Source: a virus. From it: a DNA stretch of 11,811 nucleotides. How positions within the stretch are numbered: the first letter of the stretch is position 1; the number at the start of each line of letters is the position of its first letter. Location: the UHGV virus genome UHGV-1871853. One strand, given 5' to 3'. The position numbers and the translations under genes were made by a program. The notes under the pieces were generated by a model that searched no databases, was not told where the DNA came from, and saw only the letters and a list, made by a program, of their open reading frames with translations. Shown here piece by piece: positions 1,724-11,067 of the stretch.

Positions 1724-2347
1724 CTAACGCGTGACCGCGTTCAAAATGTTGTCTGCGATTGACTCTTCCTTGTGGCATTGCACCACCAGAGCGTCATACA
1801 GCGGCTTAACAGTGCGTGACCAGGTGGGTTGAGTAAGGTTTGGGATTAGCATCGTTACAGCGCGATATGCTGCACTTGCTGGCATCCTTGAATAGCCGAC
1901 ACCTTTGCATCTTCCGCACTCTTTCTCGACAACTCTCCCCCACTGCTCAGTTTTGGCTATATCAACTGCCCGACCTGTTCCGTGGCAATCCCTGCATCTT
2001 GCGCCCGGCGTCGCGGCACTACGGCAATAATCCGCATAAGCAAATGTTGCGAGCACTTGCAGTACCTTTGCCTTAGTATTTCCTTCAAGCTTTGCCACGC
2101 CACGGTATTTCCCCGATACCTTGTGTGCAAATTGCATCAGATAGTTGATAGCCTTTTGTTTGTCGTTCTGGCTGAGTTCATGCTTACCGCAGAATGCAGC
2201 CATTCCGAATCCGGCTTGTGATTGCGCCATCCCCATAGCAGCCATCACATCAGTACCGGAAAGAGAGTCAGAAGCCGTAGCCCGTGGTGAGTCGCTCATC
2301 ATCGGGCTTTTTGGCGAATGAAATTTAGCTACGCTTTCGAGTCTCAT
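1724..2347 (-). CDS. Q: Late-gene antiterminator Q (lambda-type, 207 aa)
   Basis: Translation [29 protein letters not shown]...[11 protein letters not shown]...[11 protein letters not shown]...NAVTR is near-identical to lambda Q over its full length, including the zinc-binding cysteines. Confidence 0.96.
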
Positions 2348-3009
2348 GCGCCTTCTCCCTGTACATGAATCAATGTGAGGTTTCCGCAGAACACTGCGCC
2401 GGTATCGATATACATCTGGTTGGCAAATTTGAGTGGTTTCACTGCTGGCGTATGACCAAAGATGAACGTGTCCGCTCCTTTGATTTCTTTCACGATCCCG
2501 TCTTGTGAGTTGCTGATTCGTTCGCGGTTCCAGATTACCTGCTGATGATCAACTGGCTTTCCGAACTCGTATTCATCACAAGGATAATCGGCGTGGCAGA
2601 TGACATATTTTTTATCTTTGCTCACCAGTTCGATGATTAACGGAAGTTCATCTGCTTTATGGGCAAGAGCTTTAGCCAGAATTTCTTTGTCGTAATCGAG
2701 ATTAAAGAACCAGCCACCGCCATTAAACAGCCAGTGATTGACGTTTCCACGCTCTGATAAGCCATCAATCATCATTTGCTCATGGTTTCCACGTACAGCT
2801 CTGAACCAGGTGAATGTGATTAATTCCAGGCATTCAACGTTCTCTGTACCGCGATCGACCAAATCGCCAACCGAGATAAGCAGGTCTTTTTTGGTGTCGA
2901 ATCCTATCGTCTCCAGTTTTTTCATCAGGTTCGTGTAGCATCCGTGCAGATCGCCAACTACCCAAATATTTCGGTATTTGCTGCCATCAATTCTTTCGTA
3001 ATAGCGCAT
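2344..3009 (-). CDS. ninI: NinI / Orf221-type serine/threonine protein phosphatase (221 aa)
   Basis: From the internal ATG at 3009: [29 protein letters not shown]...GDLVDRG...GNHE, the calcineurin-like metallophosphatase motifs GDxHG / GDxxDRG / GNHE. The longer listed ORF (from 3084) overlaps ninH and is rejected as the start. Stop overlaps the Q start. Confidence 0.9.
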
Positions 3010-3193
3010 CTCTTTCACTCCATCCGCGATGAACCATAAGAACGTCGTTGACGATGGCGTGCATTTTCCCGTCTTTATCATCAACGTATTTTCTTACCGT
3101 GCCGCGACTACATTTCAGTCTGCGTGCCACTTCTGTCTGGTTTCCGTATGCTTCAACGAGCATGTCTGGAATGGTTTTTACTGAGAACGTCAT
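2987..3193 (-). CDS. ninH: NinH (68 aa, small DNA-binding protein)
   Basis: [40 protein letters not shown]... matches lambda NinH, with an HTH-like segment. Confidence 0.9.
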
Positions 3194-3801
3194 GCGGCCT
3201 CACTTCTGCTATTTCGCAGGTCTTTGAGTTTCTGTTGGTACTCTGCCTTGATCGCCTTGCACTCTTCGACAGTCCAGCGATGGCGGTTATGGTTTGATTC
3301 GATTTCGTCTACTGCTTCCTGCCCGATTCGGTTAATCAGTTCGACGCGATACGGAACGAGATTTCCGCTTTTATGCTGGTTGCACACCACGCATTGCTTG
3401 TGAATATTGCGTTCATCAAATCGGAGTTGAGGTGCCGCAGCAGTTGTCCGGTAATGTCCAGCATCCCACTGAGCAGACGTGAGCGTTCCGCACGAGATAC
3501 ATGGTAAGTCGCGGTCTCTTTCTCTGATGAAGGCGTTTACGGCTTGTTGGGCTTGTTTAATCCAGTAACTGCGGGGCTTTAAGGCGAGTTTTCGAATCTT
3601 AAGTTTATCTTTCTGTTTCTGCTCCTCTCGTCGTCGTTTCTTCTCTGCTGCTTTTTCCGCTTTTTCGCGTTCTTTACTTCGTCGTTCGAGTGCTATCTTG
3701 GCTCCACACTCTGGAGAGCACCACCACTGATTAGCGAATGTAGGGTGAAACCATTCCCGACATTCTTCGTTTTTACATCGTCTTCGCGCTGGTTTAGCCA
3801 T
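3190..3801 (-). CDS. ninG: NinG / Rap recombination endonuclease (203 aa)
   Basis: [44 protein letters not shown]... matches lambda NinG (Rap) with its N-terminal Cys cluster. Start overlaps the ninF stop. Confidence 0.9.
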
Positions 3802-3970
3802 CGTCTTCTTCCTCGTACATTGAGCTATTCGGATCGCTCATCAGTTCTGCGCAGCAATCGGAGCACACATGAACTTCCAGCACATGCAGCTTCTGACCGC
3901 AGTTAGCGCACGTTAAAGCCCGCTCGACGCTTTCTTTCTGGTATTGAAGGGATTGGGATGGGCTAAGCAT
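3794..3970 (-). CDS. ninF: NinF (58 aa, Cys-rich)
   Basis: Manual translation from the ATG at 3970: [58 protein letters not shown]. Missing from the ORF track because it is under 60 aa. The stop overlaps the ninG ATG. Confidence 0.8.
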
Positions 3971-4349
3971 TATTGACGTCCTGCATCATGAGGAAGACAA
4001 TCATGGCGGCGCGGAGAGGGTTTTCATCTTGAGTCATATGATATGGGGTACTATCACTGCCAACTTTTCTATGCGCTGCCTTCCATAATCCATTTTCTGG
4101 CGCTGGAATAATGCCAATTCTGTTCTCTACGATAATCGGATCTGCGTCTGCTGGGTTTGCGCATGGGTTAAAGGATCCGCGCTCAACTTCTACTTCAACT
4201 GCGTCTCCGTTTACAATGTCTCCCTCAAATGAGACAAACACCATATCTCCATTCTCACCTTCTTTGTAATCCGGTGATCCGTTATGAATGGCTTCGAATA
4301 CCGCCACGTTAATTTCAAAATCACTTAACTGTGAATAATCCATTGTCAT
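3963..4349 (-). CDS. Acidic hypothetical protein (128 aa) between ninE and ninF, in the position of P22-type ninX
   Basis: Start taken at the ATG in an ATGA overlap with the ninE stop ([24 protein letters not shown]...). Lambda has no gene between ninE and ninF. Named NinX-like only by position and by memory of P22 gene order. Confidence 0.6.
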
Positions 4350-4522
4350 TTCCTCGCACGATGTCTTAGCCACCGGATATCCCACAGGTGAGCCGTGTAG
4401 TTGAAGGTTTTTACGTCAGATTCTTTTGGAATTGGCTTGCGTTTATTTCTGGAGCGTTTCGTTGGAAGGTATTTGCAGTTTTCACAGATTATGTCGGTGA
4501 TACTTCGTCGCTGTCTCGCCAC
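4346..4522 (-). CDS. ninE: NinE (58 aa, basic); GTG start inferred
   Basis: Frame not in the ORF track. Translation [58 protein letters not shown] resembles lambda NinE. An AAGGAGG Shine-Dalgarno lies just upstream of the GTG at 4522. Confidence 0.7.
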
Positions 4523-4662
4523 ACGTCCTCCTTTTCCTGCGGTAGTGGTAACACCCCTGTTGGTGTTCTTTCACACCGGAGACACCATCGATTCCAGTAA
4601 GGCTGTCCTGGTCGAAAGCGATCGTCTTCCTTTCGCTCTCCACATCGATAACAGTGCTTCAT
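4489..4662 (-). CDS. ninD: NinD (57 aa, zinc-ribbon CxxC...CxxC)
   Basis: From the ATG at 4662: [61 protein letters not shown] overlap with the methyltransferase stop. The upstream ATG at 4680 lies inside the preceding gene. Confidence 0.7.
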
Positions 4663-5249
4663 GCGATCACCATTTTGCATGGTTTAATCGCCATGCCGGG
4701 AGCCAGTTCAAAATCGGAGTCGCACTGATTTCCCCACATATCCCACCCGGTCACTTTGTCGCGGCTAAATAACTCACAGCGCGGCACGTCGCCAAGCAAC
4801 TTAGCTAACATGTCTCTTACGATCGGTGGTTTTGCACTGTGCTCCATTCTCGGTGCGGTAAAGTGCTGGCATATTGAAGCGTCCATTCTCTCAGGTAACC
4901 GCCCTCGAACGGCAAACAAGCAATCCTCGCTATTTGCCCGGGTCATATGCCCCATTCCGATCGCACTGTTGCCTTTGTGCTTATTGGTTTTGTGCCAGGT
5001 AAAGCCTTTCATAGTCATCAACCTGAATCCCCACGCCTCAACTACCTTTAGCGCTTCGGCTGGCTGTGTCGGCACCCACCACATCGCTAACAAGCAAGAT
5101 TCTGGATCCGCTAAATCCCATACTGGCAGTCGGCAAATGTCCTGAACATTCATAACATCGTATTTATGTCCAGCACCGCGATTGCCATCGTTGGCTTTGT
5201 CGCGATATTGCCAAGGTGGATCTGCGTAAATAAGTCGGTATTTGTTCAT
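4659..5249 (-). CDS. MT-A70-family DNA N6-adenine methyltransferase (196 aa), in the position of lambda ninC
   Basis: From the ATG at 5249 (ATGA overlap with the ninB stop): [15 protein letters not shown]..., the DPPW catalytic motif of MT-A70-type adenine methyltransferases. No cognate restriction endonuclease is evident in the window. Confidence 0.85.
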
Positions 5250-5689
5250 GCAGCCCGATCTCCCCATCGCGCTTTCCATTCGAGAGCCAGTCGCGCTTCG
5301 TCTGACCACTTAACGCCACGCTCTGTACCGAATGCCTGTATAAGCTCTAATAGCTCCGCAAATTCGCTTACACGCATCCTGCTGGTTGACTGGCCTATTA
5401 CAACAAAGCCATTACCGGCAAGGTTAGGAACAACGTCCTGCTGCTTTAATGCTGCGGTAAACACACACTTCCAGCTTTCTGCATCCAGCCAGCGACCATG
5501 CCATTCAACCTGACGAGAGACGTCACCTAAGCAGGCCCATAGCTTCCTGTTTTGGTCTAAGCTGCGGTTGCGTTCCTGAATGGTTACTACGATTGGTTTG
5601 GTTGGGTCTGGAAGGATTTGCTGGATAGCTTGAATGGCGTTCTGCTGATGGATGGGGCTTCTTAGTTCAAACGTTAGTTTCCTCACCAT
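5246..5689 (-). CDS. ninB: NinB recombination protein (147 aa)
   Basis: MVRKLTFELRSPIHQQNAIQAIQQILPDPTKPIVVTIQERNRSLDQNRKLWACLGDVSRQVEWHGRWLD... is near-identical to lambda NinB. Confidence 0.92.
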   Translation of the reverse strand: MVRKLTFELRSPIHQQNAIQAIQQILPDPTKPIVVTIQERNRSLDQNRKLWACLGDVSRQVEWHGRWLDAESWKCVFTAALKQQDVVPNLAGNGFVVIGQSTSRMRVSEFAELLELIQAFGTERGVKWSDEARLALEWKARWGDRAA

Positions 5690-5831
5690 TTACGCTCCTG
5701 TAATCGTCAAGTGCAGCTGCAATAGTCCCTATCGGGTCATGGTCTTGCCCGATAATCTCATTTACGTTTTCATCTTCTTCCACACCGAAAAAGAATCGCA
5801 GGGCTAACATGATTTCTTCGTATGCGCTCAT
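5667..5831 (-). CDS. Small acidic hypothetical protein (54 aa)
   Basis: Manual translation MSAYEEIMLALRFFFGVEEDENVNEIIGQDHDPIGTIAAALDDYRSVNGEETNV. An AAGGAGTGAGT Shine-Dalgarno sits immediately before the ATG at 5831. It fills the gap between the 80-aa ORF and ninB and overlaps the ninB start by 23 nt. Confidence 0.35.
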   Translation of the reverse strand: MSAYEEIMLALRFFFGVEEDENVNEIIGQDHDPIGTIAAALDDYRSVNGEETNV

Positions 5832-5833
5832 AC

Positions 5834-6076
5834 TCACTCCTTCACTTTGACTCCAGCGTCGCTTAGCTCTTTTCTCATGTCATCTCTGCGGTGGTAAGTC
5901 CCGCCATAAACGTCTATTCCATGAGATGGCCATTTAATTTCGATAGATGCGCGAGACATAACCCATGACTGCCAGGCAATCATCTTGATGGCCTGAACGT
6001 GAAGTTCTTCGCTGTTGTTAATAGACTCGAACTCTTCACCAAACCACTCCAAAAACTGTTTTCTTGATTCGTTCAT
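5834..6076 (-). CDS. Hypothetical protein (80 aa)
   Basis: ORF MNESRKQFLEWFGEEFESINNSEELHVQAIKMIAWQSWV... is tightly packed between neighbouring genes on the same strand. No family recognised. Confidence 0.5.
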   Translation of the reverse strand: MNESRKQFLEWFGEEFESINNSEELHVQAIKMIAWQSWVMSRASIEIKWPSHGIDVYGGTYHRRDDMRKELSDAGVKVKE

Positions 6077-6087
6077 ATCAATCCCCG

Positions 6088-6288
6088 TTATGACAGGTTA
6101 ATTTTCACCCAACCCTTCCCACGCACATTTGCAACAAGCCCTTTCTTTCTCAGGTATTGCATACGGCGATCGATGGTTTCGATATACATTCCATTGCTCC
6201 GCCATTTAAGCCAGATATCAAAAACAGGTGTTGGTCTTTCACTCAGGATTGAAAGAATGTTTTGATCTAATTTTTCGTACTTGCTCAC
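6088..6288 (-). CDS. Hypothetical small protein (66 aa), possible winged-helix DNA-binding fold; GTG start
   Basis: GTG start in a GTGA overlap with the upstream stop, preceded by a GAGAGAGGG Shine-Dalgarno. The pattern LDQNILSILSERP...IETIDRRMQYLRKKGLVANVRGKGWVKI looks like helix-turn-helix plus wing; this is a fold guess from sequence only. Confidence 0.5.
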   Translation of the reverse strand: MSKYEKLDQNILSILSERPTPVFDIWLKWRSNGMYIETIDRRMQYLRKKGLVANVRGKGWVKINLS

Positions 6289-6611
6289 AAATACCCTCTC
6301 TCACTTAATCGCGCCCACGCTTCGTTAAACTCTTCTCGGGTTGCGCCGGATTTTCTTTCTTCAAACATCATGCATTCGCTGATGTCTCCCCATGACTTTG
6401 GTCGCTTTTCAGCGAACAGATCATCCCATTCGAATACCCAGCGGCCTGATTTTCGGTAGTGGTAAATGGTCAGCCATGTTGTGCTGTTCGCTGGATACCC
6501 ATAGAGAACTTCGACTTTTTGATCACGGTCTTTATGCTTTTTCAGCAGGATAAAGCCAGCAACCAGCGAAGCTCCGGCAAGAATGATGATTGGAATTTGC
6601 CAGTCAGCCAC
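6285..6611 (-). CDS. Hypothetical single-pass membrane protein (108 aa); GTG start
   Basis: An N-terminal hydrophobic helix IPIIILAGASLVAGFILL is followed by KKHK (positive-inside) and an 80-residue soluble domain. GTG start with a GGGGAGAGGGAAGT Shine-Dalgarno. First gene after the terminator at 6622-6658. Confidence 0.55.
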   Translation of the reverse strand: MADWQIPIIILAGASLVAGFILLKKHKDRDQKVEVLYGYPANSTTWLTIYHYRKSGRWVFEWDDLFAEKRPKSWGDISECMMFEERKSGATREEFNEAWARLSERGYL

Positions 6612-6621
6612 ACTTCCCTCT

Positions 6622-6658
6622 CCCCCAAATAAAAAGGCCTGCGATTACCAGCAGGCCT
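6622..6658 (-). terminator. Intrinsic terminator downstream of the helicase gene (tR2-like position)
   Basis: Minus-strand RNA reads AGGCCUGCUGGUAAUCGCAGGCCUUUUUAUUUGGGGG: an 8-bp GC-rich stem (6635-6642 / 6651-6658), 8-nt loop, then a U5AU3 tract. Confidence 0.75.
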
Positions 6659-6683: not shown

Positions 6684-8060
6684 TCATACGTCAGCCCCTT
6701 GTGCATATCGCCTGCCACGTGCAGCGGGTGCATTTGATGTTGTGCAAATCTGTCTGGCTTCATCCTGGTCACATGCAACAAAGTGTCCGTTACAGAACCG
6801 CTGGTAAACCGTACCAAGCGAGCCAAAACGGTTTTTCGTCACAATGATTTCAGCAAATGGCGCGGCGCTACTGTTCTCGTCATATACCGCTTCCCGATAG
6901 AGCATGATGATTGAGTCTGCGTCCTGCTCAATGCTTCCTGAATCACGCAAATCTGCGTTTGTCGGGCGTTTGTTTGGTCGCTTCTCAACATCGCGCGAAA
7001 GCTGACTCAGGGAGATAACCGGTGTTTTCAGGTCTTTCGCCATCGCCTTCAGGCTTCCGGAGATGTGAGCAATTGCGAGGTCGTTGCGGTCTGCTTTCGG
7101 CTTCTCAATCAGGCCAAGATAATCCGCCATGATGAGTGAGAGGTTTGGATTTTCCTGTTTGTGCCGTTCTGCGATTGAGCGTATTTCTTCGACCGATAAC
7201 CGCGAGGCATCGACTACCCATACATCCAAATCTGCAAGCTGACTCATGCCGTTAGCAACACGCGCCCAGCCTTCGTCATCCATCGATGCAGGATTTCGCA
7301 GTACGCTAACCGACATCCTCCCGGCGTTGGCAATGCTTCGCTCTGCAATCTGCAATGCGCTCATTTCCATCGAGAAAATCAACACTCCTCGCCGGACGTC
7401 AGAACCAGGAATAACGCGGCTTGCAACGCCTTCGGCAATCTTCAGCGCCAGCTCGGTTTTCCCCATACCAGGACGAGCAGCGATTATCACCAGGTCTTCT
7501 GCGTTCATCCCTCCGGTGATGGCGTCAAGTTCTTCTATTCCGGTCTTCAGGGTATCTGACTCTTCTCCGTTCCTCAGACGCCTGTCAAGCGTGTCGGTGT
7601 AGTCAGTGATGATTTTCCCTAAGCGTACCGGTTTAACCTCGTCACGGGGCTTTCTGATGGCTGAGAGACGCTTTACAAGTTCATCCATCGCCTGACTCGA
7701 TGCGTCGATGGTTCCGCTTTGGATTGGTTCACGCATTTCATCCATGATTTCCAGCACCAGACGGCGGTGATAGTTATCCGCGACCATTCCGGCATATCCC
7801 TTCAGGTTTGCGGCACTCGGGCAGTTTTTGCTGGTCATCAGGATTGACGTGAAATGCTCCTCTCCGCACTCCTCGGCAACCATCAGCGCGTCGATTAGGT
7901 TTCTGTTTCGCGCCTGCTTGCGGATAACCTCGAAGGCTTTCCGGTAGAGCGGAATTGAAAACGCTTCCGGCTCCAGCGTTGCCAGAACGTCGCTGGCGGT
8001 TGGTGTTAATCCACCAATCAGCAGGCCACCGATAACGCTCGCTTCGATATCCTGTCTCAT
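6684..8060 (-). CDS. Replicative DNA helicase, DnaB family (458 aa), in the position of lambda P
   Basis: Walker [13 protein letters not shown], a DnaB-like N-terminal domain and RecA-fold C-terminal motifs ([28 protein letters not shown]). Lambda P is not a helicase, so the replication module is not lambda-type. Stop overlaps the upstream gene start. Confidence 0.95.
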
Positions 8061-9004
8061 GCAATCCCCCTGTCTGCAAACTTCCCTTCCCGTACTCCCG
8101 TTAACGAATCTTCCCTCAGCAGGTAATCAAAATCAGCCGTCCAGCCCGTGTCGTTGTCTCCGAAGTAAAACGGCTTGGCCTGATGCACAAACGCCCTGAC
8201 ATACGCTCTGAAACCGTCCACATTTGGCGTTTTCAGTTGCGGGATGATTTTCTTCAGGCGGCGTTTGCGTTTCTCGTTGACCGCAACAGCGTGTGGAAGT
8301 CTGTCACCGACTTCGGTGTTGTAGGCGTTCAGGAAGGATTCGTAGTCGATTCGTTCTGCCTTGCGACGTTCAGGTTTAACCTGCCCATCGCCTCCCCCAT
8401 TGGGGGGTAGGGGGGTATTATTTATATTCTTGTTAATACCTTCTTGTTCATGATGTGCGGTTGTTTGTGCGGCTTCATGTGCGCTTTCATGTGCGGAACG
8501 TACGCTGAAAGCCGCGCCATTACTGGCTTCATCATGTGCGGCATCATGTGCGGTTGTTTGTGCGGCTTCATGTGCGGGTGAATTGTCCATTTTTTGAGCA
8601 TATTCATGGTAATTTGTGATGGTGATCACACAACCTTTTTGCTTCTCCCCATCAATAGAGATCATCCCCTCTTTCACAAAAACCTGAAGCATCCGCTCAA
8701 CCTGATCACGGCTTGCCGGCTTGCCATGTCTGTCGCATAACTGAAGACCTAAATCAGCTGCTGTCACAACCAGTTGACCGGGTTGCAGATGCCATTCATG
8801 ACCTTTGAAATTCGATTTGTATGGCTTTCTGGCGGCATTCAGGAGAAGGTTTTCCCACAGGGTGCGAAGATAAACATCTTTCGCCCATGACTGTTTCAGA
8901 ATGCTCCGGTACAACGGAATGTAACCAGTTTTCTGGTTCTCCATCCTGTTGCTCCTGCGCTCGTGTGCGGCGCTGAAATCGTAGATTTTTGCTGTATTGC
9001 TCAT
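8057..9004 (-). CDS. Replication initiator, O-like (315 aa), containing the iteron origin
   Basis: The N-terminus [17 protein letters not shown] resembles the first residues of lambda O (MTNTAKILNF, from memory). The central region encodes a repetitive [10 protein letters not shown] linker that coincides with DNA iterons, and the 3' end is overlap-coupled to the helicase gene. Confidence 0.85.
8393..8445. promoter_or_regulatory. Origin-associated AT-rich element (8416-8445) preceded by a G/C-rich near-palindrome CCCCCATTGGGGGGTAGGGGGG (8393-8414)
   Basis: tattatttatattcttgttaatacc follows the iterons in the direction of O transcription, the same order (iterons then AT-rich unwinding region) as ori-lambda. 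Confidence 0.6.
8449..8577. repeat. Iteron array of the replication origin: eight ~12-bp repeats with core TGTGCGG in two blocks of four, separated by 30 bp
   Basis: Cores at 8454, 8466, 8478 (variant TGTGCGC), 8490, 8535, 8547, 8559 and 8571. A ~36-bp unit (catgatgtgcggttgtttgtgcggcttcatgtgcg) occurs twice. The array lies inside the O-like gene, as ori-lambda lies inside O. Confidence 0.8.

Positions 9005-9714: not shown

Positions 9715-11067
<1,353 letters not shown>

Follow-up and report, generated by a model that had tools for sequence, protein, structure and literature searches.

Organisation of the locus

The DNA analysed here (the window, 11,811 nt in full) covers the part of a lambdoid prophage that holds its immunity, replication and nin genes. 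Its central feature is a methyltransferase gene of the MT-A70 type, which sits between ninB and ninD. The features that we refer to are as follows.

10034-10666 (+): LexA/CI-type repressor
8057-9004 (-): O-like initiator (replication gene)
6684-8060: DnaB-type helicase
6635-6658 (-): tR2-like intrinsic terminator, with an 8-bp stem (6 GC pairs) and then TTTTATTT; terminator scan
5246-5689 (-): ninB (Orf recombination mediator), the upstream gene; Pfam NinB PF05772, 2.4e-54
5260-5263 (-): GGAG Shine-Dalgarno-like element, -14 to -11 from the ATG, within the end of ninB; sequence reading only
5246-5249 (-): ATGA overlap of the ninB stop (TGA) and the methyltransferase start (ATG)
4659-5249 (-): MT-A70 methyltransferase gene, 591 nt, 196 aa; from the ORF list
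5211-5222 (-): DPPW codons, catalytic motif IV, residues 10-13; sequence reading
4659-4662 (-): ATGA overlap of the methyltransferase stop and the ninD start
4489-4662 (-): ninD, the downstream gene, 57 aa; Pfam NinD PF17466, 6.8e-40
1724-4522 (-): remaining nin operon, ninE to Q, every junction overlapping
4346-4522 (-): ninE
3963-4349 (-): ninX
3794-3970 (-): ninF
3190-3801 (-): ninG
2987-3193 (-): ninH
2344-3009 (-): ninI-type phosphatase
1724-2347 (-): Q

The methyltransferase lies in an open reading frame that extends from 4659 to 5309 (-). Since the ATG at 5249 agrees with the N-termini of all homologues and with the 591-nt RefSeq annotation in E. coli, we took it as the start; the 20 nt preceding it are CGATGGGGAGATCGGGCTGC. 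The DPPW motif is encoded by GATCCACCTTGG, which itself contains GATC. An earlier note on this DNA had put the gene at 4659-5249, and the open reading frame, the DPPW motif and both ATGA overlaps are all as it described them. This confirms that the gene is real, intact and correctly identified.

Several other parts of the prophage deserve mention. Positions 1-1107 are 99.8% identical to IS100 (IS21 family), with istA running off the window. The IS100 junction, at about 1105-1108, falls in the lambda-type holin gene S at about codon 61, and the truncated holin ORF that results (1036-1290, -) reads on from S into the insertion sequence. A prophage with IS100 in its holin gene may be defective, and this one is probably lysis-defective. 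Within the O-like gene, positions 8447-8589 (-) hold tandem repeats of about 12 nt (TTCATGTGCGG / ATCATGTGCGG / TTGTTTGTGCGG) that encode a His/Ala-rich stretch and look like the origin iterons found inside the initiator gene of lambda/P22-like phages. Between the helicase gene and ninB, the interval 5667-6611 (-) carries four small genes of unknown function (6285-6611, 6088-6288, 5834-6076 and 5667-5837) that match phrogs 5903, 7185, 343 and 1603; the 66-aa product reads like a winged-helix protein, and none of the four occurs in two other prophages that carry the methyltransferase cassette. The ORF at 10591-11067 (+) matches phrog_2651, has no Pfam match and contains a hydrophobic, signal-like stretch. 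Its position, between the repressor and N genes, is that of rexAB in lambda, and it is possibly a moron expressed in the lysogen. The repressor and the divergent Cro (9715-10666) look like the immunity pair of phage 434. Phage 434 itself has a PF05869 methylase after ninB, not an MT-A70 gene.

Family assignment, motifs and predicted fold

The methyltransferase matches Pfam MT-A70 (PF05063) over the whole profile, positions 1-172 of 172, with E=6.7e-25 and 88.4 bits against a gathering cut-off of 23.9 bits, and this is its sole Pfam match. The PADLOC model MTase_II (Type II methyltransferase) matches it at 4.9e-70 and phrog_359 ('DNA methyltransferase') at 4.9e-107, and the NCBIfam and PF05869 models gave no match. 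At the DNA level it is 99.3% identical to RefSeq genes called 'MT-A70 family methyltransferase'.

Alignments of 21 and 32 sequences showed D10, P11 and W13 to be invariant, and the C-terminal block E159-L-F-x-R163...W172-G-N was conserved in all aligned relatives. The DPPW at residues 10-13 corresponds to motif IV, (D/N)PP(W/Y/F), and stands N-terminal to the SAM-binding region, which is the permuted motif order. The note's assignment to the MT-A70 type from the DPPW motif is thus borne out by a full-length Pfam match in which every family-invariant residue is kept. Loss of catalytic residues on closer alignment had been named beforehand as fatal to it, and the alignments show none lost. With 63% (multiple alignment) to 65% (BLASTP) identity to the enzyme of Stx phage PA8, 45% to p32 of Serratia phage BZS1 and 43-45% to Firmicute relatives from conjugative elements, the protein falls by sequence in the small bacterial/phage branch of the family.

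When solved MT-A70 proteins were compared by sequence, Tetrahymena MTA1 matched at 1.2e-10, with its DPPW aligned to that of the window protein, and METTL3 at 1.3e-6. A profile built from 32 family sequences placed MTA1, which methylates DNA (6mA), at 1e-17, ahead of the RNA enzyme METTL3 at 2.6e-10. The AlphaFold (AF2) model of the protein had a mean pLDDT of 73.9 and a pTM of 0.76. Searched with Foldseek against the PDB, the model matched METTL3 best (9.9e-13), followed by MTA1 (1.6e-11), with a TM of ~0.65; no bacterial MT-A70 structure was found in the PDB searches. We considered the predicted fold as an arbiter between DNA and RNA and rejected it, since METTL3 and MTA1 score alike by Foldseek and the profile favours MTA1 only slightly. 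Two loops that are likely to read the target, 16-28 and 94-105, are poorly defined in the model (pLDDT<50).

Sequence and model together predict an adenine N6-methyltransferase that depends on SAM and belongs to the small bacterial/phage branch of the MT-A70 (beta-class) family. Its identity to the Erwinia phage 59 gene, 82.5% at the amino acid level vs 73.8% at the nucleotide level, indicates purifying selection. On the conserved motifs, we consider it very probable that the enzyme is active.

Operon context and expression

The ninB gene of the window shares roughly 94-96% nt identity with ninB of HK022, 434, HK97 and lambda. From ninB to Q, all nine gene junctions overlap and five of them do so by ATGA. 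Overlapping genes are a known syntax of lambdoid nin regions (PMC8022706). Therefore, the ATGA coupling, which the note had stressed on both sides of the methyltransferase gene, is present as described but belongs to the generic nin syntax and is no distinctive mark of this gene.

The absence of a visible partner endonuclease, also remarked on in the note, holds for the neighbourhood that we scanned. PADLOC matched no restriction endonuclease among ten proteins, nine of them flanking the methyltransferase, and Pfam identified the flanking genes as NinB, NinD, NinE and NinX. Since no neighbour resembles an endonuclease, the methyltransferase is an orphan and not half of a Type II restriction-modification system.

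The terminator at 6635-6658 is a strong one, with AGGCCTGC...GCAGGCCT before TTTTATTT, and stands directly downstream of the helicase gene, ahead of the nin-side genes. Its position is equivalent to that of lambda tR2, and the nin genes would therefore need N antitermination. As for an internal promoter, four promoter-like sites were found vs 6.2±2.7 expected in shuffled sequence. We rejected expression in the lysogen from such a promoter, since promoter-like sites were not above the shuffled level. We infer that expression of the methyltransferase depends on pR and on N antitermination, which confines it to lytic growth. Its transcription would occur only upon N-mediated readthrough of the tR2-like terminator, and its translation would proceed by coupling to ninB.

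The ninC slot in lambda and other lambdoid phages

In lambda, the gene flanked by ninB and ninD is ninC, and it overlaps each of them by 4 nt as the methyltransferase gene does here. Aligned with lambda, the near-identical DNA of the window ends at ...GCTGCATGA, the end of ninB, and the ATGA at 5246-5249 is also the left edge of the mosaic segment. The bodies of the methyltransferase gene and of ninC are unrelated DNA. Similarity to lambda returns at the ATG of ninD, at ~75% over the first ~60 nt and then at ~100%, which leaves the first ~60 nt of ninD within the swapped segment. These alignments put the gene exactly in the lambda ninC slot, in agreement with the note's reading that it replaces ninC between ninB and ninD. 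The cassettes have been exchanged ORF for ORF at gene boundaries, in the mosaic pattern that is classic for lambdoid phages. The NinC protein of lambda (290 aa, PAPS-reductase-like) has the same position and overlaps but no homology to the methyltransferase, and the replacement is positional only.

To survey the slot, we searched ninB against a phage collection and read off the gene that overlaps its end. That gene is ninC in lambda and O276, ninD directly in mEpX2 and ninE in CUS-3. In about half of the sampled full-length coliphage matches it encodes a DNA N6-adenine methyltransferase, and these phages include 434, HK97, HK140, mEp043, mEp332, ECP1 and Louie. The coliphage methylase belongs to PF05869/TIGR01712 (HK97p49 scores 5.5e-79 and 7e-65) and is unrelated to MT-A70. 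The enzymes of HK97 (HK97p49) and 434 (CPT_434_59) occupy the same slot and start on the ATGA that ends a ~94-96% identical ninB; like the window gene they are orphans, and they are annotated as DNA adenine methyltransferases. The next gene is ninE in HK97 and 434, whereas it is ninD in the window.

The slot after ninB in lambdoid phages can hold either of two unrelated methyltransferase families. An orphan adenine methyltransferase at this position is commonplace, and MT-A70 is the rarer filler.

Distribution of the gene and its relatives

The gene occurs at ≥95% nt identity in 39 of 5,426 complete E. coli genomes. All 25 copies among the records listed are flanked by NinB and NinD and carry the name 'MT-A70 family methyltransferase'. 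The prophages that carry the cassette differ in backbone: one has a PBSX-type terminase and another is P22-like. The same protein, at 98-99.5% identity, occurs in apparently complete P22-like and other prophages. We found no sequenced phage isolate with high nt identity; Erwinia phage 59 comes closest, at 73.8% nt and 82.5% aa, and there the MT-A70 gene lies downstream of a NinB-like DUF1367 gene. A 93% identical Cronobacter copy has the order NinB, MT-A70, NinE, without NinD, and an 82% identical Izhakiella copy has the NinB gene immediately upstream. Close relatives in Cronobacter, Izhakiella, Erwinia phage 59, Yersinia and Enterobacter lie downstream of NinB or replication genes.

More distant relatives are present in 869 of the 5,426 E. 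coli genomes, mostly adjoining a PerC-family gene. They are also found in 517 phage records, among them those of epsilon15, phiV10 and 110 Stx2a phages. A library of 1.8 billion proteins yielded 12,502 clusters of relatives at 50% identity. Firmicute relatives occur in conjugation modules with TrbL/VirB6 (TrbL_2 and T4SS pilin contexts), and some relative loci pair MT-A70 with C5 or N4/N6 DNA methylases. In Erwinia phage 59 (locus L004, 2501-4932) and at locus L016, in the upstream gene, a C5-cytosine DNA methylase shares the early operon with MT-A70, so that the two make up a small cluster of DNA methylase genes. Of the 928 E. coli matches to relatives, 72 are on plasmids; among the matches listed, three plasmid matches are on records of ~47 kb, which are possibly phage-plasmids. 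The gene is an uncharacterised further member of a routinely annotated family of prophage orphan methyltransferases, in a known variable slot.

Predicted substrate and recognition site

The best explanation, which we hold with moderate confidence, is that the window encodes a stand-alone Dam-like GATC methyltransferase, carried as a swappable post-ninB cassette in the delayed-early pR operon. It has two parts, the substrate and the site. As for the substrate, DNA is likely, though not certain, to be the main one. The slot is shared with the PF05869/TIGR01712 DNA methylases of HK97, 434, HK140 and mEp043, and this context points to DNA.

As for the site, M.EcoGV from the O104:H4 Stx prophage methylated GATC in vivo when overexpressed and examined by SMRT sequencing, according to the papers that cite this work (PMC10810198, PMC6602927). 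The protein p32 of BZS1 needed no partner protein to methylate GATC in a dam-negative host, as an MboI/DpnI test showed (PMC7556043). The Tn1549 enzyme M.EfaBMDam is also reported to be GATC-specific; its own sequence lies outside our identity comparison. According to Gong et al., many methyltransferases similar to the PA8 enzyme carry a GATC annotation in REBASE, and the PA8 enzyme is called highly similar to M.EcoGV (PMC10810198). BZS1 p32 and the PA8 enzyme share only 41% identity. Since characterised GATC enzymes bracket the window protein, GATC is the parsimonious prediction, and on the strength of these relatives it is probably the site. The note had considered the recognition site unknown from sequence; with GATC-specific relatives on either side, it can be guessed from these relatives.

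If the enzyme is a Dam mimic, it would methylate GATC in double-stranded DNA. Virion DNA of lambda and P22 is under-methylated by host Dam (PMC8022706), which makes a role for a phage-made Dam mimic during replication plausible. Such an enzyme could complete the methylation of fast-replicating phage genomes that host Dam leaves under-methylated. Two benefits might follow: progeny would be protected against restriction enzymes that cut GATC and are sensitive to its methylation, and the phage would be made independent of the Dam status of its host.

Several observations count against GATC. Host Dam of normal E. coli already methylates this site, and the gain from a second GATC enzyme is therefore not obvious. 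The BZS1 and HK639 enzymes carry an insertion of ~25 aa at the second loop (94-105 in the window protein), so the specificity could differ here, and both loops likely to read the target are poorly modelled. In addition, as the citing accounts have it, M.EcoGV was overexpressed in the work that gave GATC, and this result has since been questioned. M.EcoPA8orf6770P is the only close relative to have been purified, and in vitro its activity on DNA, also from a dam-negative source, was close to background (PMC10810198). The window itself contains 34 GATC sites vs ~45 expected from base composition, a count that is uninformative for an orphan enzyme.

Alternative explanations

The purified PA8 enzyme is also the basis of an unlikely alternative, in which the window protein would be an RNA-methylating catalytic subunit, comparable to that of M.EcoPA8orf6770P-PNB-2 from Stx phage PA8, acting on 16S rRNA or other RNA and tuning translation or prophage induction instead of modifying DNA. 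M.EcoPA8orf6770P forms a 1:1 complex with PNB-2, the product of its upstream gene, and this holoenzyme preferred RNA over DNA more than 13-fold, with 16S rRNA as the preferred RNA, and raised spontaneous prophage induction (PMC10810198). The 63-65% identity to the window protein and the best Foldseek match to METTL3, an RNA m6A writer, fit this account. Against it, a tblastn search with PNB-2 (phrog_1680) detected no homologue at E≤1, neither in the window nor in two other stretches with the cassette, namely L002 (18.6 kb of a second prophage) and L091 (40.6 kb, most of a P22-like prophage); against the window, PNB-2 gave only a chance-level match of 9 residues (E=5.2). By the same search, neither the epsilon15 PerC-like gene nor the Tyrion wHTH gene has a homologue in the window, L002 or L091. 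The alignment with the PA8 enzyme stops at residue 187/189, and the C-terminal tails are unrelated (...IKPCKMVIA vs ...KFLEKTNERKNDVDKGITS). According to Gong et al., variants without the last 27 aa occur without PNB-2 and outside STEC, and this tail was suggested to bind PNB-2; the rRNA base modified by the PA8 holoenzyme was never identified (PMC10810198). The PA8 gene lies near the integrase end, with a promoter reportedly active in stationary phase, whereas the window gene would be read in an N-dependent lytic operon. The window gene thus has neither an adjacent PNB-2 nor the STEC-type tail of ~27 aa; its neighbours are NinB and NinD.

We also considered a hidden specificity partner. Searches by tblastn with PNB-2, PNB-1, the Tyrion wHTH protein and the epsilon15 PerC-like protein returned only chance-level matches in the window and the two cassette prophage stretches. 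The small gene orf66 (6088-6288), with its winged-helix-like product, was considered as a PNB-2 analogue; it has no Pfam match and is absent from L002 and L091, both of which carry the cassette. The small genes orf108, orf80 and orf56 are absent from L002 and L091 too. As an obligate partner, orf66 was therefore rejected. NinD is 100% identical in two E. coli copies; it was rejected as a partner since in Cronobacter NinE comes straight after the 93% identical gene and NinD is missing, and since lambda NinD accompanies NinC.

An active DNA adenine methyltransferase with a site other than GATC, either another short motif or a relaxed specificity that gives broader anti-restriction cover, is about as unlikely as the RNA enzyme. 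Identity to the proven GATC enzymes is just 45-65%, and the presumed recognition loop differs by the ~25-aa indel from BZS1 and HK639. Other prophage orphan methyltransferases (M.EcoGI/II and OS31 p25) are non-specific, but they belong to other families. Against a different site, GATC is what has been reported for all characterised members of this MT-A70 branch, which span 41-65% identity and two phyla.

Two unrelated families, MT-A70 (window, Cronobacter, and after NinB or NinB-like genes in Izhakiella and Erwinia phage 59) and PF05869 (HK97, 434), occupy the post-ninB position, which suggests a further reading that we regard as improbable. The recurrence of an adenine methyltransferase right after, and translationally coupled to, the ssDNA-binding recombination mediator NinB/Orf may mirror a functional pairing, in which single-stranded DNA or recombination intermediates might be the substrate and their methylation could, for instance, blind MutH/mismatch repair during phage recombination; alternatively, the partner-less MT-A70 protein may act on RNA in lytic growth. 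If either the pairing with NinB or a role on RNA were true, the enzyme would be more than a Dam mimic.

Finally, it is also improbable that the gene is an inactive or currently useless passenger (of a crippled prophage, missing its partner or never expressed). In favour of this are the IS100 insertion in the holin gene, the near-inactivity in vitro of the PA8 enzyme by itself and the place of the gene behind a terminator in a repressed operon. Against it, the ORF is intact with every invariant residue kept, its 98-99.5% identical counterparts sit in apparently complete prophages, amino acid identity exceeds nucleotide identity across genera, and BZS1 p32 is active without a partner.

The stand-alone Dam-like GATC methyltransferase is thus the reading that we retain. 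The practical value of the finding is small. It adds one more allele to a well-populated family of prophage orphan adenine methyltransferases. The reports on the nearest studied relative conflict, with a GATC DNA methyltransferase (Fang 2012) on one side and a 16S rRNA methyltransferase that requires PNB-2 (Gong 2023) on the other. A naturally partner-less version in a lytic DNA-metabolism operon lends itself to a clean test of what this domain does by itself in bacterial MT-A70 proteins.

Comparison with known systems

M.EcoGV/M.EcoPA8orf6770P of the Stx2a prophages belongs to the same Pfam family as the window protein, with 208 aa vs 196 aa. Like the window protein, M.EcoPA8orf6770P has DPPW and all core motifs, is prophage-borne and comes without an endonuclease. 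The Stx gene, however, is co-transcribed with PNB-2 near the integrase end, while the window gene is in the ninB-ninD slot of a lytic pR operon.

The Dam-like MT-A70 group, consisting of BZS1 p32, HK639 gp35 and M.EfaBMDam of Tn1549, is of the same family, and its members are, like the window gene, orphans on mobile elements. Identity to the window protein is only 45-50%. The genomic settings differ as well: the BZS1 and HK639 genes lie downstream of the integrase and the Tn1549-type relatives in conjugation modules, whereas the window gene lies in the nin operon.

Ciliate MTA1 (DNA 6mA) and METTL3 (mRNA m6A) share the catalytic fold and the DPPW motif with the window protein at 22-24% identity. 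Both are larger and work in obligate heteromeric complexes, whereas the window protein is a bare domain of ~190 aa.
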